A stretch of DNA of 64,000 bases from Acidobacteriota bacterium (lineage in GTDB: Bacteria > Acidobacteriota > Vicinamibacteria > Marinacidobacterales > SMYC01). The stretch's first letter is position 1, and the number at the start of each line of letters is the position of its first letter. Below, piece after piece: positions 5,312 through 35,067 of this stretch. The translations under genes were made by a program, and so were the position numbers. The stretch is from contig SMYC01000016.1 in NCBI GenBank assembly GCA_004356105.1, forward strand, positions 891-64,890, written 5' to 3'. Under the pieces are notes generated by a model. The model was given only the letters and a program-made list of their open reading frames with translations. It was not told the origin of the DNA and made no database searches.

Positions 5312-8992
<3,681 letters not shown>

Positions 8993-11582: not shown

Positions 11583-13199
11583 TTACGGGTAGAACAGTGT
11601 GTGGGCCTTGGACTGCGGCTCGACACTCTCTTCGATCATCGTAGCGAAGTGCCAGCCATATTTTGCGAGAAATCCGAGAGGGGATAGGCGGCGCTCCTGG
11701 AACGTGAAGCCCGGGAACAAAGCCGTCCGTGAAGCGAAAAACTGCTGGCGCACGGTCTCATTCTTGCGCTTCACCGCGCGAAGCGCCTTCGACTCGAGCT
11801 CCTTGAGGTGGTGCAGCAGCTTGCCGCGCGTCGATTTGACCGTCGGCACGAGGCTCGCGTCGACGGGGGCGAGATCGCGCTCGAGCGCACTCGTGATGTC
11901 TTCGATACAATTTCGAGCCCGCGCGAGATCTTCGTCGAGCCCCGGTGGTGTGTGTTGACGCAAGATGTTGTTCAGAATCGATTCGTCGTTCGATTTGAGC
12001 TCAACGAACGAGACGTCGTAGCGCTCGAGGAAGCGGGCAGGCGCACGCTCGACCACCGTGAAGCTCGCACGCGACGCGATGAGCGGCATGACGACGCCGA
12101 AATGCTCGTAAAGGCCACGGAGCTGTGCGAAATAGGCGAGCTCGCTGGGCCCGGCGACGTAGGCGAGCGTCGGAAACAGCGTGTCCTGATAGATCGGCCG
12201 CAACAATACGTTGGGGCTGAATTGGCTTGGCTCGTCTTGGAGCCGCTTCAGAACGTCCTTTTTGGACACTGTGGTTCCGTCCGGGGTGAGACGCATGCCC
12301 CCTTCCGACACACCGATCGCGGTTCTGTCGGGGTCCGCGTAGAAAAGATTTAGCTGCCCATCTGTAGGGCTCGCCTGCACGTGATAGCCGCGCGCGACGA
12401 GCTCTTCGCTCGTCCTGTTGATGATCGCGCTGCTTTCGGACGCTTCCTCTAGCTCGCGCGCAAAGAGCGAGGCGCCGATGGCCTTGAGCTCGGGGAGTGT
12501 CGGGTCGATGACGGCGAGCCCCGTCCCGCGCGTCATGCGGAGCAGCCATGCGCCGAAAGCGTCGGCCATTGACCGCCCCGGGGCGTAGCTCGAGCGGAGA
12601 GACGTGAGCACGTCTTCTTTGAACTCGCTGTCGCCGAGCGCCTCGCCGGCCTTGTCGATTACGGCGCTGATCTCGGGCGCGAGCGCCAGCGGCCCAACCG
12701 GCTGGCGACCGGGCGCTCGAGGCGGCTCGTAGCGGAGGTCCAAGAGCTCGTTCCCGCGCGTGAGTATGGAGGTCTTTTGAACCTCGGCGAAATCGTGATC
12801 ATCCGCGTCCATCCAAAACAGCGGCACGACCCGTCTTCCGAGCCGTTGCTCTGCGAGGCGGGCGAGCTGCACGGCAGTAAGGGCTTTCGCGATCGTGTAG
12901 AGCGGCCCTCCGAAAATCCCTACTTGTTGCCCGCTCACGACCACGAGCGCGCCATCGCCGAGTGCATGAAGCGATGCGAGGGCTGCTTCGTCCGCCCCCA
13001 GCGAGACATTGAGCTTTCGTAGCGGGCCCGCGGTGGCGCCCTTACCTTCGAGTTTCGCTGCCACATCACCCCACGCGGCCGCATCGAACGGATCGGCGGC
13101 AAAGAAAGGTGAAAGAGCGTCGAACTTGTTCAGGTAGTCAAGGAAAAGGGGCTTGTAAGAAGGCAACTTGCGGTAATCGAGAGTGGAAATGTGCGGCAT
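11583..13199 (-). CDS. bshC: Bacillithiol biosynthesis cysteine-adding enzyme BshC-like
   Basis: The protein is about 540 aa and has the VVSGQQVGIFGGPLYTIAKALTAVQLA motif characteristic of BshC. The assignment is from memory of the family. Confidence 0.6.
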   Translation of the reverse strand: MPHISTLDYRKLPSYKPLFLDYLNKFDALSPFFAADPFDAAAWGDVAAKLEGKGATAGPLRKLNVSLGADEAALASLHALGDGALVVVSGQQVGIFGGPLYTIAKALTAVQLARLAEQRLGRRVVPLFWMDADDHDFAEVQKTSILTRGNELLDLRYEPPRAPGRQPVGPLALAPEISAVIDKAGEALGDSEFKEDVLTSLRSSYAPGRSMADAFGAWLLRMTRGTGLAVIDPTLPELKAIGASLFARELEEASESSAIINRTSEELVARGYHVQASPTDGQLNLFYADPDRTAIGVSEGGMRLTPDGTTVSKKDVLKRLQDEPSQFSPNVLLRPIYQDTLFPTLAYVAGPSELAYFAQLRGLYEHFGVVMPLIASRASFTVVERAPARFLERYDVSFVELKSNDESILNNILRQHTPPGLDEDLARARNCIEDITSALERDLAPVDASLVPTVKSTRGKLLHHLKELESKALRAVKRKNETVRQQFFASRTALFPGFTFQERRLSPLGFLAKYGWHFATMIEESVEPQSKAHTLFYP

Positions 13200-13383
13200 G
13201 GAAATTCCCGGCGGCTCCAAGTTTGCGTAAGCCCGCCTATCATAGCGTTCTCATTGATGTGAGGCCAGGCTGGGCGCGTTGACACCTGTTAAAAGGTTAT
13301 GCTAGAGTAACTTAACTGTATCTTGGATAGCCGTGCGCGGCGGCGTCAACCAGAGATTCGAGCCGTAGGACAGGAGAACCACG

Positions 13384-15627
13384 TTGACTCAGGGTGGTGC
13401 CCAAATCCCGAAGAAGATCGATCGCTACGAGATCATCGAGGTGGTTGGCTTCGGTGCTATGGGAGCGGTGTACAAAGCCTTCGACCCGCTGATCAAGCGG
13501 CCCGTCGCGGTCAAAACGTTGCGCGTCGATGTGGCGCCGCAGAGTCCGGATTACAAAGCTTTTCTCGAACGCTTTCAGACGGAGGCGCGCACCGCGGGCC
13601 GTTTGTCACACCCGAACATCATCACTCTCTACGATGTCGGTCATGCGGACGGCCAGCTTCCCTGGCTCGCGATGGAGTTCATCGATGGTGAGACCGTTGC
13701 CGAGTTGCTCGAAGGTGAAAAGCTCCGCCCCGAGCTCGTCGTTGGTCTCGTCTCCCAGATCGCGAGTGCGCTCGACTATGCCCATGGCGAAGGTGTCATC
13801 CACCGTGACATCAAACCGTCCAATGTTATTGTGTTTGGCGGCGAAAAAGTGAAAGTCGCGGATTTCGGGATCGCGAAGCTCATGGATGCGGAGATGACGA
13901 ATTCCGGCCTCATGCTTGGCACGCCGAGCTACATGTCACCGGAGCAAGCGATGGGAGAGGATCTCGACGGTCGGACCGACATTTTTTCGCTCGGTGTCGT
14001 CGCTTTCGAGATGCTGTCCGGACAGCAACCGTTTCCAGGCAACAACGTTACGTCGATCTTGTACAAGCTCGTACATGCGGATCCCGTCCGTCCGGACGAT
14101 CTAGAAGTGTTGGGTCTTCTGCCCGACAAATGGCACGAAGTGTTCTCGAGAGTGCTCGCGAAAGAGGCAAACGAGCGTTTTGCCACGGCAGCGGAGTTTG
14201 TCGAGAACCTCGAACATTGCCTCGGCTCCTGGTTTGGCGCCCTCGAGGGCGAGACCATCGTCATGAAAGATGTCGGGGCGCGCTTCGACGCCCCCCCCGC
14301 TCGCTCGCTGTCGACGCCGGTTGAGTCGGTTGAGCCCGTTGAGCCCGTTGAGGTTGTCGAGCCAACAGGGGATGCCCTGAGCGATACCGTGGTCCTGTCC
14401 GCCGACGGGGCGCCCGCCGCGCGCGGCCGAGACGCATCACTCGATGGCGCGACGATGACCCTAGAACACGCGCTCGTCGACCTATCGGCGGATACGAATC
14501 GGGAGGCGCGACCGAGCGAGGAAGAAATGGGCGAGGACACGGTGCTCATGGCTCCGCCCGGTGACGTGGAAGCGACTTTGTACACGCAAAACGAGCTGGA
14601 CGAAACAATCCGGGCCTTCGACGCCGCGGACGAAACCGTCATCCAAGCCCCGGCCACCCGGACGGCCATTGCATCGTTGCGTGCTTTGGCGCCCAAGCTG
14701 CGTGCTTTGCCACCCAAGTGGTTGGCTCTCGGAGCGGGGATCTTCGTCGCGATGATTGTCGCTTTGTTCCTCATTTTTTCGGGCGCAGAGCCGAGTCCGG
14801 ATGCCGTAACCGATACTCTGGTCGTCGAATCCGGTACGCTGAGGGTGACGACGGAACCGGAGGGTGCTCTTGTCTTTCTCGACGGTGAGAAGCGCGGCAC
14901 GACGCCCTTCTCGCTCGACGCGCTCCCGCTTGGCGACTACGCGCTGAGAGTCGAACGATCGGGCTACCTTCCGGAAGAGCTGAGCGCTTCGTTGACAGGA
15001 GACTTGCCTCTCGCGAATTTCAAGCTGGTTTTGATACCGGCCCCGGCTTACTTGCTCGTTCGTAGCTCGCCAGCCGGCGCGCGGGTCGTCATCGACGGGC
15101 AGAGGGTTGGGACGACGCCTACAGAAAGGTACGGGGTCGCTCCGGGGAGTCGGGTCGTGCGCATATTACGTACAGGCTATTTGCCGTGGGAGGACACGGT
15201 GTCCGCGCGCTCGGGCGAGACGATAGATATCGACGTGATGTTGACGCGGGACGGTCGCGCTGAGCGTCGCCCCGCCCCGTCAGCAAAGACAAGAGCGACA
15301 CCAGCGCCCGCGGGTGCACCCGTCTCAGGGACGCTCGTCGAGCGCGGCGACCCTGGCGTCGTCGATCCCAAATGTATCGAGTGTCCGGCGGCCCCCTATC
15401 CCGAAGCGGCGCGGCGACGAGGAATGGAAGGCTTGGTCGAGTTGAGCTACGTCATCGACGAGACCGGCGCGGTCCGCGATGTCACGGTTCGAGAGTCGGC
15501 TGGCGAGATTTTCGACGACTCCGTGACCCGGGCAGTCCAAGAATGGCGCTATGAACCGGCGACCAAGAACGGGGCTCCGGTAAGGATGCGCTGGGTTCAG
15601 CGCTTTCGATTTCGACGAGGTAGGTAG
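13384..15627 (+). CDS. Ser/Thr protein kinase with a TM segment, two PEGA domains and a C-terminal TonB_C domain. The start is TTG, with RBS AGGAGA upstream.
   Basis: The kinase shows GFGAMGAVYKA, HRDIKPSNVIV and DFGIAKL. The PEGA domains read LRVTTEPEGALVFLDGEKRGTTPF and LLVRSSPAGARVVIDGQRVGTTP. The C-terminus YPEAARRRGMEGLVELSYVIDETGAVRDVTV...WRYEPATKNGAPV is a TonB C-terminal fold. A putative promoter TTGACA...TAGAGT lies at about 13271-13305. Confidence 0.85.
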   Translation: MTQGGAQIPKKIDRYEIIEVVGFGAMGAVYKAFDPLIKRPVAVKTLRVDVAPQSPDYKAFLERFQTEARTAGRLSHPNIITLYDVGHADGQLPWLAMEFIDGETVAELLEGEKLRPELVVGLVSQIASALDYAHGEGVIHRDIKPSNVIVFGGEKVKVADFGIAKLMDAEMTNSGLMLGTPSYMSPEQAMGEDLDGRTDIFSLGVVAFEMLSGQQPFPGNNVTSILYKLVHADPVRPDDLEVLGLLPDKWHEVFSRVLAKEANERFATAAEFVENLEHCLGSWFGALEGETIVMKDVGARFDAPPARSLSTPVESVEPVEPVEVVEPTGDALSDTVVLSADGAPAARGRDASLDGATMTLEHALVDLSADTNREARPSEEEMGEDTVLMAPPGDVEATLYTQNELDETIRAFDAADETVIQAPATRTAIASLRALAPKLRALPPKWLALGAGIFVAMIVALFLIFSGAEPSPDAVTDTLVVESGTLRVTTEPEGALVFLDGEKRGTTPFSLDALPLGDYALRVERSGYLPEELSASLTGDLPLANFKLVLIPAPAYLLVRSSPAGARVVIDGQRVGTTPTERYGVAPGSRVVRILRTGYLPWEDTVSARSGETIDIDVMLTRDGRAERRPAPSAKTRATPAPAGAPVSGTLVERGDPGVVDPKCIECPAAPYPEAARRRGMEGLVELSYVIDETGAVRDVTVRESAGEIFDDSVTRAVQEWRYEPATKNGAPVRMRWVQRFRFRRGR

Positions 15628-15632
15628 ATACT

Positions 15633-16754
15633 TTGCCCAAGCTCGTCGTCAACCCGAACTCCAGCAACAAGAAAGAGGTCTCGATTGCTTCGCGAGTGAT
15701 CTCGATTGGCCGTGATCCATCAAATGATCTCGTCTTGTCGGACTCGATGGTCTCGCGGCGTCACGCGATTCTAGAGCAGCGCGACGATGTTTTCGTTCTG
15801 CGCGACAACGGCAGCGCTAACGGCACGCTGGTGAACGGCGACAAGCTCGAAAGGGAGCACACGTTGCGAGACGGCGATCTCGTTGCGATCGGCTCGGCTC
15901 GTCTGCTCTTTCAACTCGACAACGCGCACGATTTGGAGCCTGCCGCGTCCGATCCGCCGGTGGCGGACGGCGAGGCCGCTTCCGATATGCGCGACGCCGA
16001 AGCGGACAAGGGTAGCCCGAGCGGGAAGTCGCGCTGCCCTTCCTGTGAGGCGCCATCGCTCAAAAACGATCGTTTTTGCCGGAAGTGCGGCGCGGAGCTA
16101 GTGAGAAAGCAGGTCGCTGTTTGCACCGCTTGCGGTCGCCGCGTGCAGCTCCCCGCGGAGTTTTGCGGTCATTGTGGCCACGAGCTACCCGCTAGCGACA
16201 AGGTGGCGTCGACGCAAGCCAATGCAGCGGATCTCGATCTCAAGAACACCGATCCGGACCGTCCCGATAGGCAACCGGCGCCGCTCGAACGCCGGAAGCC
16301 GGGTATGCGCAAAAGGAAGAACGAAGAGCCTGCTGGATTCGGTGTTCGCCTCGTCGCCGCGGTCGTAGACGGCATGATCTTGGGGATTCCACTCTTTTTG
16401 ACGACCTTGGTTTGGGGGACTTTTGCGTTGAGCGCCACGGGTACCGGGCCTCGCTCGTTACCTTCCTTCAGCTTCCCACTCCTTGCCATCGCGTTTCCGA
16501 TGCTCTGTCTCTTCTATTTCGTTTTCTTCTGGGGGTATCGTGGAGCGACACCCGGCAAGAGCCTCCTTGCTATCGTCGTTGAGTCGGAAGAGGGAGAGAG
16601 CCCAATCGGCTTTCAACGCGCCGCGCTCAGAGCGCTAGGCTACGTCGCGAGCTTGCTCATGATGGGATTGGGGTTCGTCCTAATCGCCTTTTCCGACGAC
16701 AAACGCGGACTCCACGATCGCATCGCCGGCACACGCGTGATAAGGAACCCTTGA
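15633..16754 (+). CDS. FHA domain, double zinc-ribbon and RDD-family membrane domain protein
   Basis: The FHA domain reads ISIGRDPSNDLVLSDSMVSRRHAILE...NGSANGTLVNG. The zinc-ribbon Cys pairs are CPSC...CRKCG...CTACG...CGHCG. The C-terminal RDD domain includes a GYRGATPGK-type motif and hydrophobic segments. It starts 5 nt after the kinase stop. Confidence 0.8.
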   Translation: MPKLVVNPNSSNKKEVSIASRVISIGRDPSNDLVLSDSMVSRRHAILEQRDDVFVLRDNGSANGTLVNGDKLEREHTLRDGDLVAIGSARLLFQLDNAHDLEPAASDPPVADGEAASDMRDAEADKGSPSGKSRCPSCEAPSLKNDRFCRKCGAELVRKQVAVCTACGRRVQLPAEFCGHCGHELPASDKVASTQANAADLDLKNTDPDRPDRQPAPLERRKPGMRKRKNEEPAGFGVRLVAAVVDGMILGIPLFLTTLVWGTFALSATGTGPRSLPSFSFPLLAIAFPMLCLFYFVFFWGYRGATPGKSLLAIVVESEEGESPIGFQRAALRALGYVASLLMMGLGFVLIAFSDDKRGLHDRIAGTRVIRNP

Positions 16755-16784
16755 CGATACCGGACACGGCGTGATGAGGAACCT

Positions 16785-17540
16785 TTGACCACCCCGACCC
16801 GCTTTCCACCGAACGAGCCGAAAACCGAGACTTCGGAGCTCGAAGTCCCGAATACCGAGATGCCGAGAACTGCCCTCGGAGACGAAGCCCAAGGCGAAGC
16901 CGTGGTCCCATCCCAATCCGCCGCTGTTGTCGAGCCTGACCCTGCGCTGTCGCTCGAGTCGAAGTCGGTCGAGAGCCCTCGCGACATGCCGCCTGAAGCG
17001 GGAGAGGATGTACCGCCAAAACCAGGCACGTTTCGCTCTATCGTCGAATTGGTTCACGACTTGGCCATCGCCGTCGTGATCTGCGTGCTGCTGATTACCT
17101 ATGTTGTTCAGGCGTTCAAAGTTCAGGGTACGAGTATGTCCCCGGAGCTTAAAGACGGCGAGCGGATTCTAGTCAACAAATTCATGTACCACTTCAGCGA
17201 TATCGCACGCGGAGATGTTGTCGTCTTTTGGTATCCGGAAGACCCGGAGCTCTCTTTCATCAAGCGGATCATCGCGCTACCTGGTGAAACCGTCGAGATC
17301 AAAAGCGGGGATGTTTTCGTCGATGGAGTTTTGATCCACGAATCCTACGTGACGAGCGCGCATGCCGACCGCAGGTCTCACCCGAGCCAGGAAATTCGCC
17401 CTGGACATTATTTTGTCTTGGGAGACAATCGGCGCGGCAGCAATGACAGTCGAAGCTGGGGCCTGGTGCCCGAGCGCTACATCTACGGTCGAGCTTTCGT
17501 CCGAATCTGGCCACCGAGCGACGTCGGCCTCGTTCAGTAG
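16785..17540 (+). CDS. lepB: Signal peptidase I. The start is uncertain, and the annotated ORF includes a ~100-aa acidic/Pro-rich N-terminal extension.
   Basis: The catalytic box GTSMSPEL, then KRIIALPGETVE, and GDNRRGSNDSRSWGLVP near the C-terminus. Confidence 0.85.
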   Translation: MTTPTRFPPNEPKTETSELEVPNTEMPRTALGDEAQGEAVVPSQSAAVVEPDPALSLESKSVESPRDMPPEAGEDVPPKPGTFRSIVELVHDLAIAVVICVLLITYVVQAFKVQGTSMSPELKDGERILVNKFMYHFSDIARGDVVVFWYPEDPELSFIKRIIALPGETVEIKSGDVFVDGVLIHESYVTSAHADRRSHPSQEIRPGHYFVLGDNRRGSNDSRSWGLVPERYIYGRAFVRIWPPSDVGLVQ

Positions 17541-17545: not shown

Positions 17546-19549
17546 CTACATACGGTCTGGCACCGGGATTCCCATCAGCTCGAGGGCCGTTTTGTGCTGA
17601 CGATGAAAGAGTTGGACCACTAGAAGCAGCAGCGCGCGCTTCGCTTCGTTCGGCTCGGTGGCGATTTTGAAGCGGTGGTAGAACCCGTTGAACTTTTGCG
17701 CGAGGCCCAAGGCGAAACGTGCCAAATGGGCGGGCTCTTCGGTGCGCAAGACGGTCTCCGTCATCGCCCCGAGCTCCATCGCTTCGTACATGACACTCCA
17801 AATCTCGTCCGCTTCCGCGTCACCGAGGGTCTCGAAACTCTCGGCCAACGTTTCTGGAAAAGTGATGTCCACGGACGAAGTGCTCATCTTCTGAAGTATC
17901 TTGGCGGCACGCACCGCGGCGTATTGCAGATAAGGCCCGCTGTCGCCGTCGAAGCTCAAGGCTTCATCGAAATCGAAGGCTATGACCCTGTTCTTCGTGT
18001 ACTTGACCATGAAGTAGCGAAGCGATCCTCGGGCTATCGCCTTGGCGATGTCGCGTTGCTCGTCTCCGGTCATCTCGGGATTTCTCTTGTCGACCTCGGC
18101 GCGCGCCTTGGTCTCGAGTGCGCCGAGCAGATCGTCGGCTTTCACGCCGCGACCTCGGCGTCCCGACACTTCGAGGTAAGGTTTCTTCGCCTCCTCGGCG
18201 CTCACGGAGAAGCCGAGCTCGCGACAAGTCGCCGGCGTGAGTGCGACCATTTCGTAAGAAAAGTGGTGGGAGCGGTCTCGCGCGCTTTCCGAAGCGAGCA
18301 AGGCGACGCCGCGCTGCACGATGTCTTGAAGGTAGGCTTGCCGGACGTCGATGACGTTGAAGACAGTCTCGCCGTCACCGAAGCTCGGCGCGTCCGAAGC
18401 ACCGCTTGGCGTCGTCGACGCCGTCGTGCCGTCTGACGTCGTCGACGCCGTCGTGCCGTCTGACGTCGTCGACCACACCGTATGCCCGTCGGGGTAGCGG
18501 TGAAAGGCCTCATATTGGAAGTGGCGGTCGAGGAGCCCCAACTTCCACATTTGATAGGCGATGTCCTTTCCCACGTAAGTCACGGTTCCGTTCGAGCGCA
18601 CGATGACTTTTTCGTCTTGCTCGCTCGGCTCCTCGCCTTCGGTGCCCAGGTCCATGATCCAGCAGCCTACGTTTTTGCCTTTCGTCGCGAGCCGGATGGC
18701 TTTTTTTTCTTTGAGGAGCTCGTAAGCGCGTTCCCAGAAATGCAATCGAAGAATATCGCTCTCCCATGGCAGAAGGTCGTAGCGGACGTCGATGCGCTCC
18801 ATCGTCGTGAGGTGGTAGCGAACGATCGTCTCGGCGATCAGCTCGCCGAGGGGTCCTTCCGGGCCAGTGCCTTCTTCGATTGCCTTGAGCGTGTTCTCAC
18901 GAAGCTTTAGACGCTCACGATCCTCCGCGTAGAAGCCGGAGACACGCGCATACAGATCCCAGCAAACGTAGTCGAAACGCCCTTCATTGATGATGGCGCG
19001 TACCTCGTCGAGCGTTTTCTTCTCGATGTGGAGAAAACCAACCACGACGTCCGCGACCTGAACGCCCGTATCGTCAATGTAATTCTGTACTTCGACGTCG
19101 TGACCGCGGTAGCGCAGCACGCGCACGAAGGTGTCGCCGAGCGCCGCGTTTCTTAGATGGCCGATATGGGCGGCTTTATTCGGGTTGATGTTCGTGTGCT
19201 CGACGATCGTCTTTGAGTGCGTTTTTGGCGCGTCATTTTTTCTCGGCGCGAGGAAGTCCTCGACGTAGCTCGCTCTGTCGACGAAAACGTTGAGATAGCC
19301 CGCACCCGCGACGTCGACGCGTGCTACACCTTGGACGCTTTCGAGAGCGGGGGCCAAGGTCTCGGCGATCTTTCGCGGGGCCATTTTCGCGATTCGAGCG
19401 AGATCGAAAGCAACTGGAAAAGCTGCATCTCCCAAGCTCGATTTTGGCGGTCGCTCTTGCACGATGTCGTCGATGGCAACGCCATAATTCTCTTGCACCG
19501 AGTCGCGGAGCGCTCGGCGCAGCCTTTGATGAACTTCTCCTTGGCGCAT
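17546..19549 (-). CDS. argS: Arginine--tRNA ligase. The likely start is M at 19549, and the ORF is open back to 19609.
   Basis: The class I HIGH signature is present in PNKAAHIGHLRNAALGDTFVR. It also has an Add-1 N-domain and the DALR anticodon-binding C-terminus. A T/S-rich insertion encoded by a tandem 27-bp repeat is present (see findings). Confidence 0.9.
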   Translation of the reverse strand: MRQGEVHQRLRRALRDSVQENYGVAIDDIVQERPPKSSLGDAAFPVAFDLARIAKMAPRKIAETLAPALESVQGVARVDVAGAGYLNVFVDRASYVEDFLAPRKNDAPKTHSKTIVEHTNINPNKAAHIGHLRNAALGDTFVRVLRYRGHDVEVQNYIDDTGVQVADVVVGFLHIEKKTLDEVRAIINEGRFDYVCWDLYARVSGFYAEDRERLKLRENTLKAIEEGTGPEGPLGELIAETIVRYHLTTMERIDVRYDLLPWESDILRLHFWERAYELLKEKKAIRLATKGKNVGCWIMDLGTEGEEPSEQDEKVIVRSNGTVTYVGKDIAYQMWKLGLLDRHFQYEAFHRYPDGHTVWSTTSDGTTASTTSDGTTASTTPSGASDAPSFGDGETVFNVIDVRQAYLQDIVQRGVALLASESARDRSHHFSYEMVALTPATCRELGFSVSAEEAKKPYLEVSGRRGRGVKADDLLGALETKARAEVDKRNPEMTGDEQRDIAKAIARGSLRYFMVKYTKNRVIAFDFDEALSFDGDSGPYLQYAAVRAAKILQKMSTSSVDITFPETLAESFETLGDAEADEIWSVMYEAMELGAMTETVLRTEEPAHLARFALGLAQKFNGFYHRFKIATEPNEAKRALLLLVVQLFHRQHKTALELMGIPVPDRM

Positions 19550-19617
19550 CTGCGAATTATACACATCGGCGGAATGGCAGATGCTACGAGCGCCGCGCTG
19601 TTTTATCATGGGCGCGC

Positions 19618-20985
19618 ATGACGAGCTTCTCTGAGTTCAGCACCCATCGACGCACGGCCGCGATCCTTCTCGGTGAAGGCACGTCGGCTGCCTATCTCGC
19701 GGGCGTCATGAGCGCGCTCAAAAATGCCGGCGTGCGTATCGACATAATCCTCGGAAAAGGTGCCGGGGCGCTCGTAGCGGTTTTTAGCGCTATCGACGCC
19801 GAGGAGCGGCTTCATGGAGACGCGGGACTGCTGGCCGGGGCGAGTGTTGAGCGCCCATGGCGCTTGCGCCCCTTGTACAAGTTGACGTTTGCCTGTCTTC
19901 TCGTTGCAATGGCCGTCTTTCTCTCGCCGGTTTTGTTCGGGCTCGCGCTTCCGCTTCAAGCCTTGGGCCACGTTCTGTTTGGGGGGGCGGAGACGGTGCT
20001 CCCAAGGGTCGGCGTGTTATGGCTGCCCGCGCTGTTAGATGCTGCCGAGCCGGTTTATCTTCGCGCGATGGTGCTCCCGCTCGTTGCGCTTTGCGCGATA
20101 TGGGTCGTGTGGTGGCTATCGAGTTTCGCGCGGCAACGTAGTGCACCTTCGCTTCCCGAGCTCTACGACCTCGAGCCGCTCGCGGCACTCGTCGAGACCA
20201 AGCTATGGCAAGCTGTACGGGGTGCTTTGACCAGCGATCGGCCGAAGGAGCGAAGGGATATTGGCGCTGCGTATCAAGAGCTTCTGTCGGGAAGCCTCGG
20301 GCAGCTCGGTTTTCGCGAAATCGTTTTCTACGCTCTCGATACCGATAGCGGTCGCGAGGTCTCTTTTGCGCTCCTGAAGGATCGTTTTTTTAGAAAATTT
20401 TCATCGAACGGCGCGGGGCGAGCGCCGCGCCGGGAGACCATCGATCTCGCCAAAGACGGCGGGCCTCTATTGTTCGATGCTTTGATGGCGGCGTTGAGCC
20501 CGGTTGGGCTCGTGCCGACCGTGCCGATCAAGCTTCCGCTCGACACCACTTTCGGGGGCGAGGTTCACCGCTTCGCCGGGAGCCTCCTCTCCGGCTCGAG
20601 CGCGGTTCAGGACGCTGTGGCGGCGGGCGCCGAACAAATCATCTATGTGGCCGGGTGCGCTCCCAGCGACCGCCCGGGCGGCAATGCGATCGAGCGGCTC
20701 ATGGAGGCGTCGTTGCGGCGAACTTTGAGCGACGATCTCGCCGAAGCGACGAGACAAAACGACCTCCCCGTTTTTCTGATCCGTCCGGACAAGCAGCGAC
20801 TGAACCCGTTTGAAGTGACAGGCCGCGCGCAAATTGGAAACGAGCGGTTCAACTTGAACGCGCTGGTCGCGCATGGACGCCGCGACGCGCTGCGCCTGTT
20901 CGTAGAGCCCGTACTAGGTGACGATGCTTCCGAGCAGGACCGGAGCTCGATGAAAGTGCCGCAAGCGGGGCCCCGCGAGCTGTAG
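19618..20985 (+). CDS. Membrane protein with a degenerate patatin-like N-terminal domain
   Basis: ILLGEGTSAAYLAGVMSALKNAGVRIDIILGKGAGALVA aligns with the patatin Gly-rich loop plus GxSxG, with Ser replaced by Gly. A DGG motif comes later, and several hydrophobic helices lie in between. The assignment is low confidence. Confidence 0.4.
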   Translation: MTSFSEFSTHRRTAAILLGEGTSAAYLAGVMSALKNAGVRIDIILGKGAGALVAVFSAIDAEERLHGDAGLLAGASVERPWRLRPLYKLTFACLLVAMAVFLSPVLFGLALPLQALGHVLFGGAETVLPRVGVLWLPALLDAAEPVYLRAMVLPLVALCAIWVVWWLSSFARQRSAPSLPELYDLEPLAALVETKLWQAVRGALTSDRPKERRDIGAAYQELLSGSLGQLGFREIVFYALDTDSGREVSFALLKDRFFRKFSSNGAGRAPRRETIDLAKDGGPLLFDALMAALSPVGLVPTVPIKLPLDTTFGGEVHRFAGSLLSGSSAVQDAVAAGAEQIIYVAGCAPSDRPGGNAIERLMEASLRRTLSDDLAEATRQNDLPVFLIRPDKQRLNPFEVTGRAQIGNERFNLNALVAHGRRDALRLFVEPVLGDDASEQDRSSMKVPQAGPREL

Positions 20986-21185: not shown

Positions 21186-21809
21186 ATGGGTTCAGTTATG
21201 TCTAGCGTTCTCGATTTGACCTTTATCGGACTCGCGGGGCTCTTTACGGTGTGGAACGTCTTTTTTCTTGCTCGCTACGCGCGATATCGGCGCCTCATGC
21301 CCACCGCCGAGCTCACGTGGCGGGCCAGCAGGCCATGGTTTTACAACATGTGTATCGGCATCGGGTTTTTTATGGTGAGCATGACGTCGTTGAGCCTCTT
21401 CGTTTTGGATCGGCCGGTCCTCTCGATCGTGGCCCAGGGCCTGATGGCCATCTACTACACGATCGCCTTTCCTCTCTCGTTTCAGATTCAACGTGGTTTC
21501 TACAAGTCGGGCATCTGGTTCGACCGCTCGTTCGTGCCCTATACGAAAGTGCGACGTTTGGCGTGGCGCGAACAACCGGACGTCGTTCTTGTCGTCACGA
21601 AGGAAGCAGATCTGACGGGGCAGGACTACGCGCGACTTCAAGTTCCAAGGGAGCGCTACGGTGAAGCGCGGGGTATTCTGGCGAGCCATATAGATGATCG
21701 GAGTCTCTCGGTCGAAGCGGGCATTCTAGGTCTCGCCGAGGAAACCGCGGGGGGTGCCGAGGAAACTCCGAGGCTCGCCGACAGCGACGCGGCGCAGGAT
21801 CGCGTATGA
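21186..21809 (+). CDS. Hypothetical polytopic membrane protein
   Basis: It has four to five hydrophobic helices and coding-like composition. It overlaps the downstream HMT/MTHFR gene by 4 nt, which suggests co-transcription. Confidence 0.45.
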   Translation: MGSVMSSVLDLTFIGLAGLFTVWNVFFLARYARYRRLMPTAELTWRASRPWFYNMCIGIGFFMVSMTSLSLFVLDRPVLSIVAQGLMAIYYTIAFPLSFQIQRGFYKSGIWFDRSFVPYTKVRRLAWREQPDVVLVVTKEADLTGQDYARLQVPRERYGEARGILASHIDDRSLSVEAGILGLAEETAGGAEETPRLADSDAAQDRV

Positions 21810-23659
21810 CGTCGCTTGGACGAGACGCCTTCTCGAAACGACTATCGTCCGCGCCGCTCGTGTGTGACGGTGCCATGGGGACGTTGCTCTACGGCAAGGG
21901 CGTGATGGTCCACCGCTGTTTCGACGAGCTCAACCTCTCGAATCGTGAGCTCGTCCTGTCGGTGCATCGCGACTACCTCGCCGTCGGTGTCGACGTCCTC
22001 GAGACGAACACTTATGGCGCCAACCGTTTCAAGCTCGAGCCTCACGGATTCAAAGACCGCGTCCGCGAGATCAACGAGGCCGGCGCGGCCGTCGCGAGAG
22101 GGGCCATCGGAGCCATGGATGGGCCCGTTCTCGTTGCGGGTTCTATTGGTCCGCTCGGGAAACCGATCGCGCCGATCGGCACGATTTCCGAAGAGGAGGC
22201 GCTCGCGAGCTTTGGCGAGCAATGCGAGGGATTGGTCGCCGGCGCCGTCGATTTCGTGATTCTCGAAACGTTCTCGGATCTTCGGGAGCTCAGTCTCGGC
22301 ATCCGCGCGCTGCGCGAGGTGGCGCCGGATTTGCCGATCGTCGCGCAGATGACTTACGGCGATGACGGATCGACGCCGCTCGGCGCCAAGCCAGAGCACG
22401 TTGCCCGCAAGCTCTCGGCCCTCGACATCGACGCCATCGGCGCGAATTGTAGCGTGGGCCCCGAGCTCATGCTGCGCGTCGTCGAGCGGCTTGCGACCGC
22501 GACGAATCTTCCGATCTCCGTGCTGCCCAATGCCGGTCTCCCCGAGCTCGTCGAAGGACGGGTCATTTATCTGAGCTCACCTGAATATATGGCGCATTAC
22601 GCGAAGCGTTTCTTGAAGGCTGGCGCCGCGATGCTCGGCGGCTGCTGTGGCACGACGCCCGATCATATCGGTGCCATGGTCGGCGTTGTTCGAGCGCTCG
22701 GCCCCGCGCGAACGCAAATCGAGGTCGCCACCCCCGCACAAGACTACATCGAGCGTGAGCCCGTGCCACGCGAGAAGAAATCGCGCCTCGCGAGAGCCCT
22801 GGGGCGCAAATTCGTCGTCTCCGTCGAGATGGATCCGCCCAAGGGCGCGGACCCAGGACTCTTTCTCGAAAAAGCGCAGTGGCTCAAGGAGAACGAGGTC
22901 GACTACATCAATGTCGGCGACGGGCCGCGCGCGAGCGCGAGGATGAGTGCTTTGAGCTTCGCCGTTCTTCTCGAGCAGCGTGTCGGCTTGGAGACGATCC
23001 TTCACTATCAATGCCGCGACCGGAACCTCATCGGCATCCAGTCGGATCTGCTGGGGGCGCAGTCCCTGGGCTTGCGCAACATCCTCGCGGTAACAGGCGA
23101 TCCTCCCAAGCTCGGAGATTATCCATATGCGACCGCGGTCTTCGACGTCGACTCCGTCGGCCTCACGAAAATCCTCGGCCGGTTGAATCGTGGTCTCGAT
23201 CTTTCTGGAAATCCTCTCGGTCTTGCGCTCCCGTTCCACATTGGTGTCGGCGTCAACCCTGGAGCGACCGACTTCGACGAGGAGATTCAGAGGTTCCAGG
23301 ACAAGGTGGAAGCGGGGGCAGAATATTGCTTGACGCAACCCGTCTACGAGGCGCGCTATCTCGAAAGGTTTCTTGAAGCGATCGAGAGCTACCGGATCCC
23401 CGTGCTCGTCGGCATCCTGCCTCTCGTGAGCTCGCGCAACGCCGAGTTTCTCCACAACGAGGTGCCCGGCATGGCCGTCCCGCAGGAGATTCGTGACCGG
23501 CTAAGGAGCGCTTTGACCAAAGAAGCCGCCCAGCAAGTCGGCGTGGATGTCGCGCGCGATGCTTTACGGGCCGCGCGAGACCTCGCCGACGGTGCTTATG
23601 TGTTGCCGCCGTTCAATCGATTCGAGCTCGCCGTCCAGGTCATCGCAGATATTATCTAG
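21806..23659 (+). CDS. Bifunctional homocysteine S-methyltransferase / 5,10-methylenetetrahydrofolate reductase (YitJ-like fusion)
   Basis: The N-terminal Hcy-binding domain shows VCDGAMGTLLY and [11 protein letters not shown]. The C-terminal MetF domain reads FVVSVEMDPPKG...LHYQCRDRN...AVTGDPP. The protein is 617 aa. Confidence 0.85.
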   Translation: MTSLGRDAFSKRLSSAPLVCDGAMGTLLYGKGVMVHRCFDELNLSNRELVLSVHRDYLAVGVDVLETNTYGANRFKLEPHGFKDRVREINEAGAAVARGAIGAMDGPVLVAGSIGPLGKPIAPIGTISEEEALASFGEQCEGLVAGAVDFVILETFSDLRELSLGIRALREVAPDLPIVAQMTYGDDGSTPLGAKPEHVARKLSALDIDAIGANCSVGPELMLRVVERLATATNLPISVLPNAGLPELVEGRVIYLSSPEYMAHYAKRFLKAGAAMLGGCCGTTPDHIGAMVGVVRALGPARTQIEVATPAQDYIEREPVPREKKSRLARALGRKFVVSVEMDPPKGADPGLFLEKAQWLKENEVDYINVGDGPRASARMSALSFAVLLEQRVGLETILHYQCRDRNLIGIQSDLLGAQSLGLRNILAVTGDPPKLGDYPYATAVFDVDSVGLTKILGRLNRGLDLSGNPLGLALPFHIGVGVNPGATDFDEEIQRFQDKVEAGAEYCLTQPVYEARYLERFLEAIESYRIPVLVGILPLVSSRNAEFLHNEVPGMAVPQEIRDRLRSALTKEAAQQVGVDVARDALRAARDLADGAYVLPPFNRFELAVQVIADII

Positions 23660-23762
23660 CAAGCTGACGAAACGACATCCCCTTGCTTTTGCTCTTTGCG
23701 ACACCACTCTCGCGGGAGCTGTACCGCTTTAAGCTCGACCCGCGGTGTGTTACAACGGAGAT

Positions 23763-24719
23763 ATGCTCTCGCTGAGTCTCGTTGGTCTCCTCCTACTTTC
23801 GTCGGTGTTAGCGTTTGCGCAAGAAGAAGTCCAACGAATTCCCGTTTTCACGACGGATGTCGACATGGTGTCGGTCGCAATCGCGGTTCACGACCGCGAC
23901 GGCAACTTCGTGAGGGGCCTTACCGCCGATCAGTTCAAAGTGTACGAGGACGGCGTCGAGCAGAGGATCGAGCTCTTTGCCGCGGGACTCGACGAGTCCT
24001 GGGTCGATCTGCCGCCCGAGATCAAAGACGAGCTCTCGGGCCGGCAAGTCATTGGGCTCATCATGGACGCGAGCGGGAGCATGGAAGACGACATGCCCCT
24101 TTTGCGAACCGCCGCGATCAAGTTCCTGATGAATATCCCGAAGACCGAGAATTTGTTCGTCATGGATTTCGACGAGAACATACGTCTGTCGCGGTACTCG
24201 TCCGACGATCAACGGGTCATTGCCGAGCGTATATACGGGATCAAGTCCGAGGGCTGGACGGCACTCTATGATGCGGCTGCGACTTTTCTCGAGCGAGTTT
24301 ACGACCTTGATGGTCGCAAGACGCTCGTCATTTTCAGCGACGGCGTCGACTCGCGAAGCACCCTGGGCGTCAGCGAGGTCTTCGAAATGGTGAAGCTTTC
24401 CAACGTCACGATCCACTCCATCCATTTCGCGGGGAGCTCCAGCATGAGCCGCCGTTTCCAAGAGAGCCGTTTTCTGCGTCAACTTGCGCGCGAGACGGGG
24501 GGCACCTACGCACAGGGCCATTCGTTGGAGGTAATCGACAAGCTCTTCGACAAGATCCTCGACGAGCTCTTCAGCCAATACAACATCGCCTACCTATCCT
24601 CGAATACGGAGACCAACGGGAAGTACCGGAAGATCAAAGTCGAGGTCGATGTGGACGATATCAAGATTCGCCATCGCCGTGGCTATTTCGGCCCGGAGCG
24701 AGAACCCACGAAGCAATAG
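23763..24719 (+). CDS. Secreted von Willebrand factor A domain protein (acidobacterial VWFA-related type)
   Basis: Signal peptide, then VIGLIMDASGSMEDDM (MIDAS DxSxS), then LVIFSDGVDSRST. Confidence 0.75.
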   Translation: MLSLSLVGLLLLSSVLAFAQEEVQRIPVFTTDVDMVSVAIAVHDRDGNFVRGLTADQFKVYEDGVEQRIELFAAGLDESWVDLPPEIKDELSGRQVIGLIMDASGSMEDDMPLLRTAAIKFLMNIPKTENLFVMDFDENIRLSRYSSDDQRVIAERIYGIKSEGWTALYDAAATFLERVYDLDGRKTLVIFSDGVDSRSTLGVSEVFEMVKLSNVTIHSIHFAGSSSMSRRFQESRFLRQLARETGGTYAQGHSLEVIDKLFDKILDELFSQYNIAYLSSNTETNGKYRKIKVEVDVDDIKIRHRRGYFGPEREPTKQ

Positions 24720-24781
24720 CTGATACATGAGGATAGAGAGACTGGCGATCGACGACCGGTGACTGCTACGATGCGGGTGTC

Positions 24782-25090
24782 ATGAAATCCAAGTTCACGG
24801 TGCAAGATACGCAATATGAAGTCGTGCTCGAGAAGAAAGAGCGCGGCGAAGGCGACAAGTTCAACCCCTACGGTGCCACGGTCTCCGGGCAGCCGAGCGG
24901 AAACGTCTCGGGTACCTGCCGGATTACCGACGACGCTCTGAGGCTTGCGGAGGAGCGCACCCGCTCTGAAGGCGCTTCCTCGGGCGAGCTCCTCGCTCGA
25001 GCTTGTGGAAAGTCGCTCGCGTCGGAGCTCGTGATTCGAAAGCTCGAGCCGGATTTCTCTTTCGTGGTCGACCATCGCTGGCTCGACTGA
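24782..25090 (+). CDS. Small hypothetical protein (102 aa)
   Basis: ORF only. No motif was recognised. Confidence 0.3.
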   Translation: MKSKFTVQDTQYEVVLEKKERGEGDKFNPYGATVSGQPSGNVSGTCRITDDALRLAEERTRSEGASSGELLARACGKSLASELVIRKLEPDFSFVVDHRWLD

Positions 25091-25290
25091 GCTTCCGCCC
25101 AGCCGCGTAGTTCAAATCATTGAACCTAGCAGTGTTGCGGGAGGCCTGCGGTAAAATCCTCATGATCGAGCGCGCGCCGTGGCGTATAATAGAGAAGTAC
25201 GCAAACCAAGGCTCAGGAAGCTACCACTTCGAAACCGCTGGGCCGGCGCCCTCGGGTAAAAAGAACACTCCCGGGGCGGTTAAAAAAAGG

Positions 25291-26274
25291 ATGGCTGTGC
25301 CCCCGCACGAAGGCCAGTACGTAGCAACGCGTTGGCGACGTCGCCGAGCGGTCTTGGTCGGCGCTGTCACTGTTGTAGTGCTGCTTGTAGTGCTGCTCGC
25401 GTGTTTGGGAGCGTCCCCGCCGTACGGGCCGCTTCATCGCCTGGTCGCACTTTCGGGAATGCTCGGCAAGCCCGTATCGCCCTTAGTACCGGCAGCGCCA
25501 GTTCAGCCGATCAAGAACGAACCGCCACAAACATCTGGTTCCCCGGAAGACCTTTTCATGCTGCCGCAGGCGCTTCAGCAGTACCGGAGCCCCGAGATTA
25601 GCGACCCACGTGTTCCGCGTGAGTTTTATTTCTCTCGCGCGGCCTATACCGGTCGTTCCCGTTTTCGCAACTATCGCACGTGGAGCGTCGATTTTCCGAA
25701 GGCGGATCGGCAGTTCTTGATAGGGCTCCGCCGCCTCACGAATCTCGATGCTTTCGAGGCCGAGAATCCGCTGCGGCTCACGGATCCAAACCTCGGACGC
25801 TTTCCGTTCCTGTATACGGTCGAGGTCGGCTACATGGCGCTCACCCAGCCCGAGGTCGAGGGGCTGAGGCGCTATCTCCTGGCGGGAGGCTTTCTCGTCG
25901 TCGATGATTTTTGGGGTACCTACGAGTTCGAGAACTTCCAGGACCAGTTCCAGCGCATTCTTCCCGGATACCCGATCGTGGACATCCCGCTCGATCATCC
26001 GATTTTCAGCTGCTTCTACCACGTGGAAGAGATCATTCAAGTTCCCAACGTCGGACAAGGCATGCAAGGTGGTCCGACGTGGGAGTCGGATGGGTATTAT
26101 CCGGCCCTGAAGGGTGTCTACGATGAGCATGGGCGGCTCATGGTCGTGATCAATTGGAACACGGACCTCGGAGATGCCTGGGAGTGGGCTGAAAATCCCT
26201 ATTACCCGCTCAAATTCTCGACTTATGCTTACCAAATGGGAGTAAACTTCATTATCTACGCAATGAGTCATTGA
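25291..26274 (+). CDS. DUF4159-like membrane-anchored protein (paralog 1). The likely start is ATG at 25291.
   Basis: It has a TM anchor (LVGAVTVVVLLVVLLACLG). The core YLLAGGFLVVDDFWG...HPIF...GVNFIIYAMSH is clearly paralogous to the ORF at 32235. The family assignment is from memory of MoxR/BatA neighbourhoods. Confidence 0.55.
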   Translation: MAVPPHEGQYVATRWRRRRAVLVGAVTVVVLLVVLLACLGASPPYGPLHRLVALSGMLGKPVSPLVPAAPVQPIKNEPPQTSGSPEDLFMLPQALQQYRSPEISDPRVPREFYFSRAAYTGRSRFRNYRTWSVDFPKADRQFLIGLRRLTNLDAFEAENPLRLTDPNLGRFPFLYTVEVGYMALTQPEVEGLRRYLLAGGFLVVDDFWGTYEFENFQDQFQRILPGYPIVDIPLDHPIFSCFYHVEEIIQVPNVGQGMQGGPTWESDGYYPALKGVYDEHGRLMVVINWNTDLGDAWEWAENPYYPLKFSTYAYQMGVNFIIYAMSH

Positions 26275-28583: not shown

Positions 28584-29575
28584 TCGCGAGGGCGTTCGCG
28601 GTCGTCCTCATCTCGACATTGGCCGCCGTCGCGACGGCGAACCAGACCTACCTCGTCATCATTTCGGGCCTCGGCGGCGAGGACCGGTACCGCGAGAGGT
28701 TCCACCAATGGTCGCTCGCGATGCGTGAAGCGGCGCTAACGGACGCGGCCGTCCCCGAAGACAACATTTTCTACCTCGCCGAGAAAGTCGAGCTTTCTCC
28801 CGAGCTCGTGCACGCGAAGTCGACCAAGGACAACGTCATCGCGCTTTTCGAGAAAATACAGAAAAAAGTGCGCCCGGGCGATCAGCTCTATGTGTTGCTC
28901 ATCGGTCACGGCAGCTTTCGCTCGGAGCAGTCGCGGTTCAATTTACCGGGGCCGGATTTGACCGCCGAGGATTTCGACGCAATCTTGGCGCCTTTTGGCG
29001 AACAACAAATCGTGTTCGTCAATACGTCGAGCGCGAGCGGAAATTTTGTTCGCATTCTCTCGGGGCCCAATCGCATCGTGGCGACCGCGACGAAGAGCGG
29101 CTACGAGCGGAATGAATCGCAGTTTGGAAAGTATTTCGTAGAGGCCTATTCTGGAGACGGGGCGGACACGGACAAGAACGAGCGTGTATCGGTACTGGAA
29201 GCTTACACCTATGCCCGGATTCGCGTGAAGGGCTACTACGACGAAGAGAACCTGCTTCAAACCGAGCATTCCATGCTCGACGATAACGGAGACGGTGAGG
29301 GTTCTCACGAGCCTTCGGAGAACGAGGGCAACCTGGCGAGCACGGCTTATCTCATGGGTGACGCCGCGGTGGCCGAAGGGTTCGGAGAAGCCGACATCGC
29401 GGCGGATCCCGAGCTTGCGGCGCTCGTCGAGAAACGGCGTGAGCTCGAAGGGCGCGTCGTAGCGCTTCGCCAACAGAAAGACTCGATGCCGGAAGATTTG
29501 TATATGCAAGAGCTCGAGCAGGTGCTTCTGGAGCTCGCCCGAGTTACGGCCAGTATCGAGGAGAAGCGGCAGTGA
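28550..29575 (+). CDS. Legumain/peptidase C13-like protein in which Ser replaces the catalytic Cys; possible pseudo-peptidase or Ser-nucleophile variant
   Basis: It has a signal peptide. LYVLLIGHGS...QQIVFVNTSSASGNFV...IVATATKSG aligns with the legumain YFTDHGS...VFYIEACESGSM...YATTAANP blocks. Confidence 0.55.
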   Translation: MGLPEAPRPRMIARAFAVVLISTLAAVATANQTYLVIISGLGGEDRYRERFHQWSLAMREAALTDAAVPEDNIFYLAEKVELSPELVHAKSTKDNVIALFEKIQKKVRPGDQLYVLLIGHGSFRSEQSRFNLPGPDLTAEDFDAILAPFGEQQIVFVNTSSASGNFVRILSGPNRIVATATKSGYERNESQFGKYFVEAYSGDGADTDKNERVSVLEAYTYARIRVKGYYDEENLLQTEHSMLDDNGDGEGSHEPSENEGNLASTAYLMGDAAVAEGFGEADIAADPELAALVEKRRELEGRVVALRQQKDSMPEDLYMQELEQVLLELARVTASIEEKRQ

Positions 29576-33017: not shown

Positions 33018-33035
33018 AGGCGTGCTTACTGATGA

Positions 33036-34112: not shown

Positions 34113-34154
34113 TGTTCAGCATTCAGCATTCAGGATATTCGGATTTAGCTCGGC

Positions 34155-35063: not shown

Positions 35064-35067
35064 GCCC

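Follow-up and report, generated by a model that had tools for sequence, protein, structure and literature searches.

A putative three-gene envelope-signalling operon of a PEGA/TonB_C-domain receptor Ser/Thr kinase, an FHA/zinc-ribbon/RDD membrane protein and signal peptidase I in Vicinamibacteria

A 64,000-nt stretch of an Acidobacteriota genome (contig SMYC01000016.1, positions 891 to 64,890; the whole stretch is referred to below as the window, and all coordinates are those of the window) carries three consecutive forward-strand genes, stk, fha-znr-rdd and lepB, which we read, with modest confidence that leans towards acceptance, as a tricistronic envelope-signalling operon in which a receptor kinase with a TonB-like tip is paired with an FHA-domain reader. 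The operon is a variant of the known kinase-FHA signalling pairs and not a new kind of system. Bacterial Hanks kinases commonly carry shuffled domains. An earlier reading of the bare sequence (the original prediction) had proposed a compact two-gene module, in which a eukaryotic-like Ser/Thr kinase with two PEGA domains and a TonB C-terminal domain is followed by an FHA-domain membrane protein. The kinase-FHA pair of that proposal holds, while its two-gene limit does not, as lepB is the third cistron.

The kinase gene (13384..15627, +) encodes a protein of 747 aa and begins with a TTG codon 7 nt downstream of an AGGAG Shine-Dalgarno sequence. Its product is identical to NCBI TDI48318.1, which is labelled 'MAG: TonB family protein [Acidobacteria bacterium]' (MAG, metagenome-assembled genome). 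A Hanks-type kinase domain spans aa 15-267 (13426..14184, +), where Pkinase (PF00069) matches with an E-value of 2e-45 and 155.7 bits against a Pfam cutoff of 31.7. The catalytic motifs are intact, including GxGxxG (GFGAMG22-27), VAVK44, HRDIKPSN140-147 with D142, DFG160-162 and SPE185-187. In an alignment of 13 orthologous sequences (alignment A1), K44, N147, DFG160-162 and P186-E187 are invariant, and R141 and D142 of the HRD motif are kept in 12 of the 13. The exception is an ortholog of 44% identity (P0083; A1 columns ~170-180) that has HCG for HRD and retains PEGA and TonB_C; judged by its sequence, it may be a pseudokinase variant or a sequencing error. Across A1, the kinase domain and the ectodomain are conserved, and the cytoplasmic linker is poorly conserved. 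The protein is predicted to be a catalytically intact, bitopic receptor kinase. All three of the domains that had been proposed for it, the kinase, the PEGA pair and TonB_C, are recovered by Pfam, and both the kinase gene and the FHA gene lie exactly at the coordinates given.

The chain crosses the membrane once, in a transmembrane (TM) helix at aa 447-465 (14722..14778, +; LALGAGIFVAMIVALFLIF) that is flanked by Lys/Arg on its N-terminal side and by acidic residues on its C-terminal side. The topologies of the kinase, its partner and LepB were all derived from hydropathy and the positive-inside rule. Because the N-terminal flank of the helix is basic and a kinase needs ATP, the kinase domain and linker are assigned to the cytoplasm and the PEGA domains, spacer and TonB_C to the periplasm, and the single helix with its basic flank thus supports the periplasmic TonB_C that had been predicted. 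The periplasmic part opens with two PEGA domains (~aa 484-550 and 557-622; 14833..15249, +), which Pfam recognises over two stretches (E 4.4e-29, 100.6 bits) and which share a conserved PxGAxVxxDG...G.TP in A1. They are followed by a Pro/Ala-rich spacer (aa 623-661; 15250..15366, +) that is variable in A1 and by a CxxC motif (C664-C667; 15373..15384, +) that stands 4 residues ahead of the 'YP' of TonB_C. These are the sole cysteines in the ectodomain of the window protein. The CxxC is present in 79 of 106 orthologs, the remaining 27, from a distant clade, having no cysteine at all; it may be a structural disulfide or a redox switch.

The tip of this arm is a TonB C-terminal domain (aa 670-744; 15391..15615, +) that includes YPEA and WRYEP. 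It scores 74.6 bits with TonB_C (PF03544; gathering score 24.6, E 8.9e-21) and 55.2 bits with the NCBIfam model tonB_Cterm (TIGR01352; cutoff 27.1). By sequence, the last 97 residues match solved TonB C-terminal domains (CTDs), namely 6fip and 6i97 of Pseudomonas aeruginosa (E ~4e-10) and, further, TonB2 of Vibrio anguillarum and 1u07, 2gsk and 2grx of Escherichia coli, with an alignment that spans both the YP and the WR[YF]EP motifs. An AlphaFold2 (AF2) model of aa 640-747, built with 100 family sequences, has a mean pLDDT of 89.9, and its best Foldseek match is 6i97_D, a TonB CTD on the FoxA TonB box (E 3.5e-7, TM score 0.91, root-mean-square deviation 1.2 Å). The next matches are all TonB, FusB or HasB CTDs, and domain III of TolA is far behind. 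In A1, the C-terminal strand RWxQRFRFRxGR is strongly conserved. The TonB_C identity of the C-terminal ~80 aa, a test set in advance, therefore passes curated cutoffs, and sequence and predicted fold agree.

Between the kinase domain and the membrane lies an acidic, Thr-rich juxtamembrane linker of ~160 disordered residues (aa 286-446; 14239..14721, +). Five [DE]T[VILM] sites are found in it (T290, T334, T385, T407 and T417), where shuffled sequences lead one to expect 0.63. Among 104 orthologs, the mean is 3.6 sites per linker versus 0.41 in shuffles, an 8.9-fold excess, and per 100 aa the linker contains 2.1 sites, compared with 0.32 for the remainder of the protein. The residues enriched around the linker threonines are D at -2, E at -1, I/V at +1 and M/I/L at +3, which gives the repeat consensus D-E-T-[IV]-x-[MIL]. 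The N-terminal tails of LepB, taken as a control and as a possible substrate, are not enriched in [DE]T[VILM] (0.03 found, 0.08 expected). Mycobacterial Ser/Thr kinases and FHA domains are reported to prefer acidic residues upstream and a hydrophobic residue at +3, and the linker pattern fits this preference. The linker threonines are likely candidates for autophosphorylation sites and for phosphothreonine (pThr) docking sites of the FHA partner. Several of the linker motifs (SDTVVLS, GETIVM, EDTVLM and DETVIQ; 14239-14721) also resemble the TonB box of outer-membrane receptors, for which the consensus is D-T-hydrophobic-V-V. The idea that motifs such as DTVVL and ETIVM serve as a self-ligand for TonB_C was considered and rejected on topology, since the single TM helix leaves the linker in the cytoplasm, where self-binding to the periplasmic domain is seemingly impossible. 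The likeness is probably a convergence with the pThr preference of kinases and FHA domains.

The second gene (15633..16754, +; TTG start) encodes a 373-aa protein that is identical to NCBI TDI48319.1, labelled 'FHA domain-containing protein'. Its FHA domain (aa 23-87; 15699..15893, +) matches PF00498 with an E-value of 4e-21 and 75.7 bits against a cutoff of 20.7. The domain is almost invariant across the partner family. Its pThr-binding residues, G26-R27, S41-R42-R43-H44 and N63-G64-T65, show no substitution in 14 sequences, and across 117 they are conserved to at least 90%. Among solved FHA domains, the nearest belong to kinase partners, namely Rv1747 (6cah, E 1e-9), GarA, OdhI and Rv0020c, and the domain is predicted to be competent for reading pThr. 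Next come two zinc ribbons (aa 135-182; 16035..16178, +) made of four CxxC pairs that start at C135, C149, C164 and C178, with all 8 cysteines invariant. The C-terminal RDD domain (aa 233-366; 16329..16730, +) consists of three hydrophobic helices, matches PF06271 (E 1.1e-23, 84.5 bits against 24.1) and has invariant R239, D246 and D362. A strongly basic stretch before its first helix places the FHA domain and the zinc ribbons in the cytoplasm. The proposal that an FHA domain, four CxxC pairs and an RDD domain share one chain is thus confirmed in every part by Pfam and the sequence.

The partner shares the three-helix domain with its conserved R, D and D with the rest of the RDD family (PF06271), which includes kinase fusions elsewhere. 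What is specific to the proteins described here is the FHA domain at the N-terminus together with two zinc ribbons, a kinase gene as obligatory neighbour and the coupling to lepB. Ser/Thr kinase-RDD fusions exist in cyanobacteria (PMC2176072). Na+(Li+,K+)/H+ antiporter activity has been reported for one RDD member, from H. andaensis (PMC5996927), and Burroughs et al. described a conserved intramembrane RDD site that faces the cytoplasm, along with frequent fusion to VanZ lipid-carrier enzymes and to kinases, and call the role of the domain unknown (PMC12419801). The C-terminus of the PADLOC model PDLC04051, for the PD-T4-6 kinase, matches 16515-16748 (partner aa 295-372) with an E-value of 2.3e-5, which indicates that kinase-RDD fusions are among the sequences behind that model. 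The Ser/Thr kinase-RDD fusions and the PDLC04051 match offer support of the Rosetta-stone type for a functional link between kinase and RDD domain.

The junction of the first two genes (15617..15635, +) is tight. A Shine-Dalgarno-like GAGG lies in the last kinase codons, the TAG stop at 15625-15627 is followed by ATACT, and the TTG of the FHA gene begins at 15633; the 5-nt spacing originally given is exact. In relatives, for which the starts were placed by the conserved N-terminus (M)[AP]KL[VI][VI]NP, the kinase stop and the FHA start are separated by -1 to +17 nt at 61 of 63 junctions, and the start codon is TTG, GTG or ATG. The TTG and the 5-nt gap of the window are common to its four closest relatives, which validates the TTG start of the FHA gene. 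From this spacing, the two genes appear to be translationally coupled.

Signal peptidase I was correctly placed directly downstream. The lepB gene (16785..17540, +; Peptidase_S26 E 4.3e-48; TIGR02227 162.7 bits against 47) is the third gene of the operon and encodes 251 aa, with an acidic cytoplasmic N-terminal tail of ~90 aa and then, by hydropathy, one TM helix at aa 93-111. The start of lepB overlaps the stop of the FHA gene (NTGA) in 39 of 53 loci of relatives, and it is this overlap in most relatives that makes the operon one of three genes and not two. In the window, an imperfect direct repeat (16735..16796, +; 28 nt, 82% identity, 34-nt spacing) occupies the junction. Copy 1 (16735-16762) holds the TGA of the FHA gene and copy 2 (16769-16796) the TTG of lepB, while in relatives the segment occurs once, with the TTG of lepB overlapping the TGA stop (TTGA). 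The LepB N-terminus MTTPTRFPPNEP is conserved in the loci L005-L008, and the copy-2 start of the window still encodes it. Comparison with these loci indicates that the repeat is a duplication of the ancestral overlap of FHA stop and lepB start.

TTG is the apparent start codon of the kinase gene (13384), the FHA/RDD gene (15633), lepB (16785) and the divergent bshC (11583-13220, -). The TTG starts of the FHA/RDD gene and lepB are supported by the closest relatives, and at this codon more distant relatives have GTG or ATG. A candidate sigma-70-like promoter (13279..13308, +; TTGACA-18 nt-TAGAGT, TG-extended) lies in the divergent intergenic region between bshC and the kinase gene. It has 10 of 12 consensus matches and is weak as evidence, since 3 such sites were found where shuffles give 1.0±1.2. 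The same promoter/terminator scan, again weak evidence, found no convincing terminator inside the three-gene unit, and neither an Rfam nor a tRNA scan of the window gave a hit.

Conservation of the locus was assessed by using the kinase alignment to scan a single genome for each GTDB species, which returned 80 loci; every open reading frame (ORF) in them was typed with phmmer domain probes, and 69 loci were orthologous. The scan used only two exact peptide patterns, and the numbers are an undercount. Even so, the gene for FHA, double zinc ribbon (DZR) and RDD directly follows the kinase gene in 59 of 59 orthologous loci with at least 1.3 kb of downstream DNA, and lepB is next after it in 59 of 59, so that the pairing is no product of chance. 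This answers, in favour of the original prediction, the preset question of whether an FHA neighbour is conserved beside orthologous kinases. Upstream, bshC is divergent from the kinase gene in 63 of 65 loci. In 22 of 40 full-size loci, none of six other window neighbours (argS, metH, the sigma factor, SDF, Dabb and ORF554) was found in the 7-kb flanks, yet the four-gene core remains intact, so that the linkage exceeds background synteny. The 11 loci that were not orthologous comprise a PEGA-kinase paralog (L067), a short contig fragment (L069) and nine matches to the kinase domain only, in Chloroflexi, Mycobacterium, Myxococcales and Actinomycetota. The same order, with bshC on the opposite strand followed by genes for the kinase, the FHA/DZR/RDD protein and Peptidase_S26, is found in three independent metagenome loci whose kinases are 60%, ~47% and 43% identical to that of the window. 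In the window, bshC (11583..13220, -) encodes the bacillithiol cysteine-adding enzyme (433.6 bits against a cutoff of 265.8); it is taken here only as context for the operon. It may be observed separately that the conserved divergent neighbour of a CxxC-bearing kinase is a bacillithiol gene.

The family appears to be confined to one lineage and to be common there. When database proteins are grouped at 90% identity, Pkinase, PEGA and TonB_C occur together in 111 of the best 120 clusters for the kinase, and FHA, DZR and RDD together in all of the best 120 for the partner. Among species-representative genomes, the nearest relatives (76-81% identity) are MAGs, namely those of 'Candidatus Marinacidobacterales' and Acidobacteria bin61, and the order Marinacidobacterales belongs to the class Vicinamibacteria of the phylum Acidobacteriota. 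The architecture is thus lineage-specific yet common within Vicinamibacteria, apparently as a class-wide, single-copy core feature. The description of TonB_C on a kinase as uncommon is accurate outside this lineage and fails within it, where those 111 clusters carry the full architecture. A search of representatives with the ectodomain uncovered no case of it joined to another signalling output; multi-PEGA repeat proteins dominate its results, and PEGA and TonB_C occur together in only 24 of the 156 proteins checked (150 listed and six repeats, which leave the counts unaffected). Fifteen of these 24 have a detectable kinase, and the other 9 are short (156-448 aa) and probably fragments. The database names for the kinase family are only 'TonB family protein' or 'serine/threonine-protein kinase', and a literature search found no paper on the PEGA/TonB_C kinase architecture.

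Two irregularities in this family deserve mention. Short relatives without TonB_C (P0004 and P0084-P0092; 441-584 aa) were considered as natural truncations, an idea that was rejected because the kinase part and the PEGA and TonB_C part are split over adjacent frames. Such splits occur in L006-L008, L018, L019, L028, L031, L047, L055, L058, L061-L064, L070, L080 and L081; the split kinases stem from long-read MAGs (OZ..., CBD... and MFD... records) and most likely reflect indel or frameshift errors. In addition, records named 'uncultured Hyphomicrobium sp.' (L029) and 'uncultured Alphaproteobacteria bacterium' (L055) contain a complete locus of the Vicinamibacteria type, with bshC, kinase, FHA/RDD and lepB genes, and are likely mis-binned or mislabelled.

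For the operon as a whole, we infer a ligand, phosphorylation, FHA docking and an output along the following lines. The TonB_C tip would contact an outer-membrane or peptidoglycan partner by beta-strand augmentation, as TonB does, and this contact would alter the oligomeric or activation state of the kinase. The kinase would then autophosphorylate the D-E-T-[IV]-x-[MIL] threonines of its own juxtamembrane linker, and the FHA domain of the co-translated partner would dock on the resulting pThr sites. Docking would bring the zinc ribbons and the RDD domain to the kinase, with the partner probably becoming a substrate. The output would be exerted in the inner membrane, and the start/stop overlap with lepB suggests that it may bear on signal-peptide processing, secretion or envelope biogenesis.

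Several points weigh against this reading. The roles of the kinase, FHA and RDD domains are predicted from sequence and models. The RDD domain has no fitting biochemical role among those reported, the antiporter (PMC5996927) and the cytoplasm-facing site (PMC12419801), and its AF2 model (pLDDT 88.5) has no structural relative among solved structures. The linker motif was defined post hoc, having been seen in the window before testing, and the 104 orthologs are related to each other and not statistically independent. The linkage to lepB could be housekeeping co-expression instead of regulation, and in the window itself the 34-nt duplication uncouples lepB from the FHA gene by 30 nt. There is no PP2C phosphatase gene in the locus, and the relatives are all MAGs.

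The closest precedent is the PknF-Rv1747 operon of Mycobacterium tuberculosis, in which a kinase regulates the FHA-bearing membrane protein encoded next to it (PMC3138270; PMC3908365), and a receptor-kinase/FHA-adaptor operon of this kind is the most parsimonious reading. There, the kinase gene is co-transcribed with that of the FHA membrane protein, the kinase phosphorylates threonines of a disordered linker, and the FHA domains read them; a corresponding arrangement exists in the window, where the genes for the kinase and the FHA membrane protein are adjacent on the same strand. The two systems differ in that Rv1747, an ABC exporter, has two FHA domains and carries the pThr sites in the transporter itself, whereas the partner here has an RDD domain and two zinc ribbons, with no ABC domains found by Pfam, the candidate pThr repeats are in the linker of the kinase, and lepB is part of the operon. 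We know of no PEGA/TonB_C-type ectodomain on PknF.

An alternative that is possible, though on balance unlikely, is that TonB_C and the PEGA domains are a static anchor to peptidoglycan or to an outer-membrane protein, for example at sites of growth or division, while the kinase-FHA pair works like PknB with FhaA and FhaB and has its activity controlled in another way. The actinobacterial PknA/PknB-FhaA/FhaB(FipA) cluster indeed combines a PknB-like receptor kinase, an extracytoplasmic sensor that contacts the wall and a membrane-anchored FHA partner. The kinase domain of the window protein is closest to the PknB type (NCBIfam PknB_PASTA_kin, E 1.4e-85, over the kinase region only; NF033483, for PknB/PASTA, reaches 288.5 where the cutoff is 450 and matches nothing beyond the kinase domain), and the FHA domain matches FhaB_Rv0019c (FhaB/FipA) with 60.6 bits (cutoff 125, E 1.8e-16). 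Static anchoring would also suit a single-copy core-genome locus that stands amid housekeeping genes. There are reports that TonB C-terminal domains bind peptidoglycan. In the gliding machinery of Myxococcus xanthus, moreover, TonB_C-like domains are structural connectors: GltG has the order FHA-FHA-TM-TonB_C-like and GltJ the order ZnR-GYF-TM-TonB_C-like (ZnR, zinc ribbon; PMC11761067). These two proteins share with the present pair a cytoplasmic FHA domain and a zinc ribbon, a single TM helix and, in the periplasm, a long spacer with a TonB_C-like tip that extends to partners near the outer membrane, and they indicate that TonB_C can act as a periplasmic connector outside iron and nutrient uptake. 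They differ from it in that their parts are in one chain that works with a TolQR-like motor and no kinase is present in Glt, whereas here TonB_C is on the kinase and the FHA domain and zinc ribbons are on a separate RDD protein; the NCBIfam GltG model (NF033760) matches only the FHA region, with 45.9 against a cutoff of 650. The actinobacterial parallel is likewise incomplete. In place of PASTA repeats, the sensor is made of two PEGA domains and TonB_C in a diderm periplasm, pstP, rodA, pbpA, fhaA and fhaB neighbours were not found, and neither PASTA domains nor PP2C, RodA or penicillin-binding protein (PBP) genes lie beside the locus in the three metagenome loci or the orthologous loci. The strongly conserved RWxQRFRFRxGR strand, like the canonical fold of TonB_C, speaks for a specific beta-augmentation partner and against generic anchoring. 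Anchoring and sensing are compatible in any case, and this alternative overlaps with the signalling model.

A more specific version of sensing, which is speculative and which we regard as improbable, is a TonB-dependent surface signalling that acts through a Ser/Thr kinase. The tip would bind TonB boxes that outer-membrane receptors or barrels expose, or a beta-strand equivalent to such a box. Receptor occupancy, or the state of the outer membrane, would be converted directly to multi-site Thr phosphorylation in the cytoplasm, and the FHA-RDD protein would read it and tune signal peptidase I, secretion or envelope biogenesis. If so, the CxxC beside the binding strand might add redox gating in most members. 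In surface signalling of the FecA-FecR-FecI type, an inner-membrane protein reads the state of an outer-membrane receptor across the periplasm. The resemblance is a possible functional analogy only, as the output here would be Ser/Thr phosphorylation and a FecR-type anti-sigma protein, an ECF (extracytoplasmic function) sigma factor and a transducer gene are absent. The sigma factor encoded 2 kb upstream of the kinase gene contains regions 2, 3 and 4, and its gene is not retained at distant loci.

Little credence can be given to the view that the adjacency reflects synteny or co-expression only, such that the FHA/RDD protein reads pThr placed on other proteins by other kinases and the neighbouring kinase has unrelated substrates. 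Acidobacteriota do encode many Ser/Thr kinases, the MAG that contains the orthologous locus L017 also has a PEGA-kinase paralog without TonB_C or an FHA neighbour (L067), and the wider region is syntenic among close relatives. Against this view stand a pair that is kept in all 59 loci with gaps of at most 17 nt, and also in the 22 of 40 loci where none of the other tested window neighbours was found, a pThr-type motif enriched specifically in the linker of this kinase, and the kinase-RDD fusions seen elsewhere.

It is very improbable that the protein is a true paralog of TonB, energised by ExbBD to act as a transducer for outer-membrane receptors and modulated by its own kinase domain. The name 'TonB family protein' used by the sources, the canonical TonB_C and the Pro/Ala-rich spacer speak for it, and the inner-membrane anchor, the spacer that spans the periplasm, the tip with its YP and WRYEP motifs and the fold are shared with the TonB of E. 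coli and P. aeruginosa. In place of the short cytoplasmic N-terminus of TonB, however, there is a 290-aa kinase region and a 160-aa linker, so that the helix follows 446 cytoplasmic residues, and two PEGA domains are inserted in the periplasmic part; both this cytoplasmic part of some 440 aa and the PEGA domains are foreign to TonB. The TM helix lacks the His that coupling to ExbBD requires and has no SHLS-type motif and no residue conserved among orthologs, A1 having no invariant column between aa 284 and 484. Neither MotA_ExbB nor ExbD genes lie within ±6 kb of the kinase gene in the three metagenome loci, and the ORFs of 220 aa or more that were scanned against Pfam in the 64-kb window include no ExbB/ExbD. 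Given this helix and the lack of exbBD nearby, the database name is misleading, and 'PEGA/TonB_C-domain receptor Ser/Thr kinase' is more accurate. An anti-phage defence kinase related to PD-T4-6, MADS or BREX PglW is extremely improbable, for although the PADLOC models PD-T4-6 and mad6 (E down to 9e-91) and the NCBIfam models MAD6 and PglW match the kinase, they cover only the generic kinase domain (aa ~10-290; MAD6 152 against 460, PglW 67 against 990), other defence genes are not adjacent, and the locus has a conserved core position between bshC, lepB and argS as opposed to a place in a variable island.

The remainder of the window offers several observations of its own. A 554-aa ORF (19321-20985, +) lies 3' of argS, has no Pfam match at E <= 1e-5 and is beside argS in 18 of 40 related loci; in L002, a gene with a Patatin domain follows lepB in a similar position. 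A 617-aa fusion of homocysteine S-methyltransferase and methylenetetrahydrofolate reductase (21806-23659, +) is encoded 13 kb from a full-length B12-dependent metH (5312-8992, -). A large cluster at 23745-40787 resembles an aerotolerance-type operon of the Bat/MoxR kind and contains genes for a VWA protein, two DUF4159 proteins, a GATase1-like protein, an 888-aa protein with TPR and peptidase-MA domains, a MoxR AAA_3 ATPase, a BatA-VWA protein and a 1170-aa DUF4175 protein. Finally, a 773-aa ORF (49359-51680, -) has two LptF_LptG stretches (E 1.2e-153) and is apparently an LptF-LptG fusion permease.

Acidobacteriota are abundant in soils and sediments, and the class Vicinamibacteria is represented almost entirely by uncultured genomes. 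To our knowledge, signalling in this class is essentially unstudied. The operon described here joins an outer-membrane contact domain of the TonB type, phospho-signalling by a Hanks kinase and an FHA domain, and an essential signal peptidase, three elements that were not known to be linked. If the TonB_C tip does report the state of the outer membrane or periplasm to the kinase, this would constitute a new trans-envelope signalling route in diderm bacteria, and the enigmatic RDD domain would gain a defined upstream regulator.

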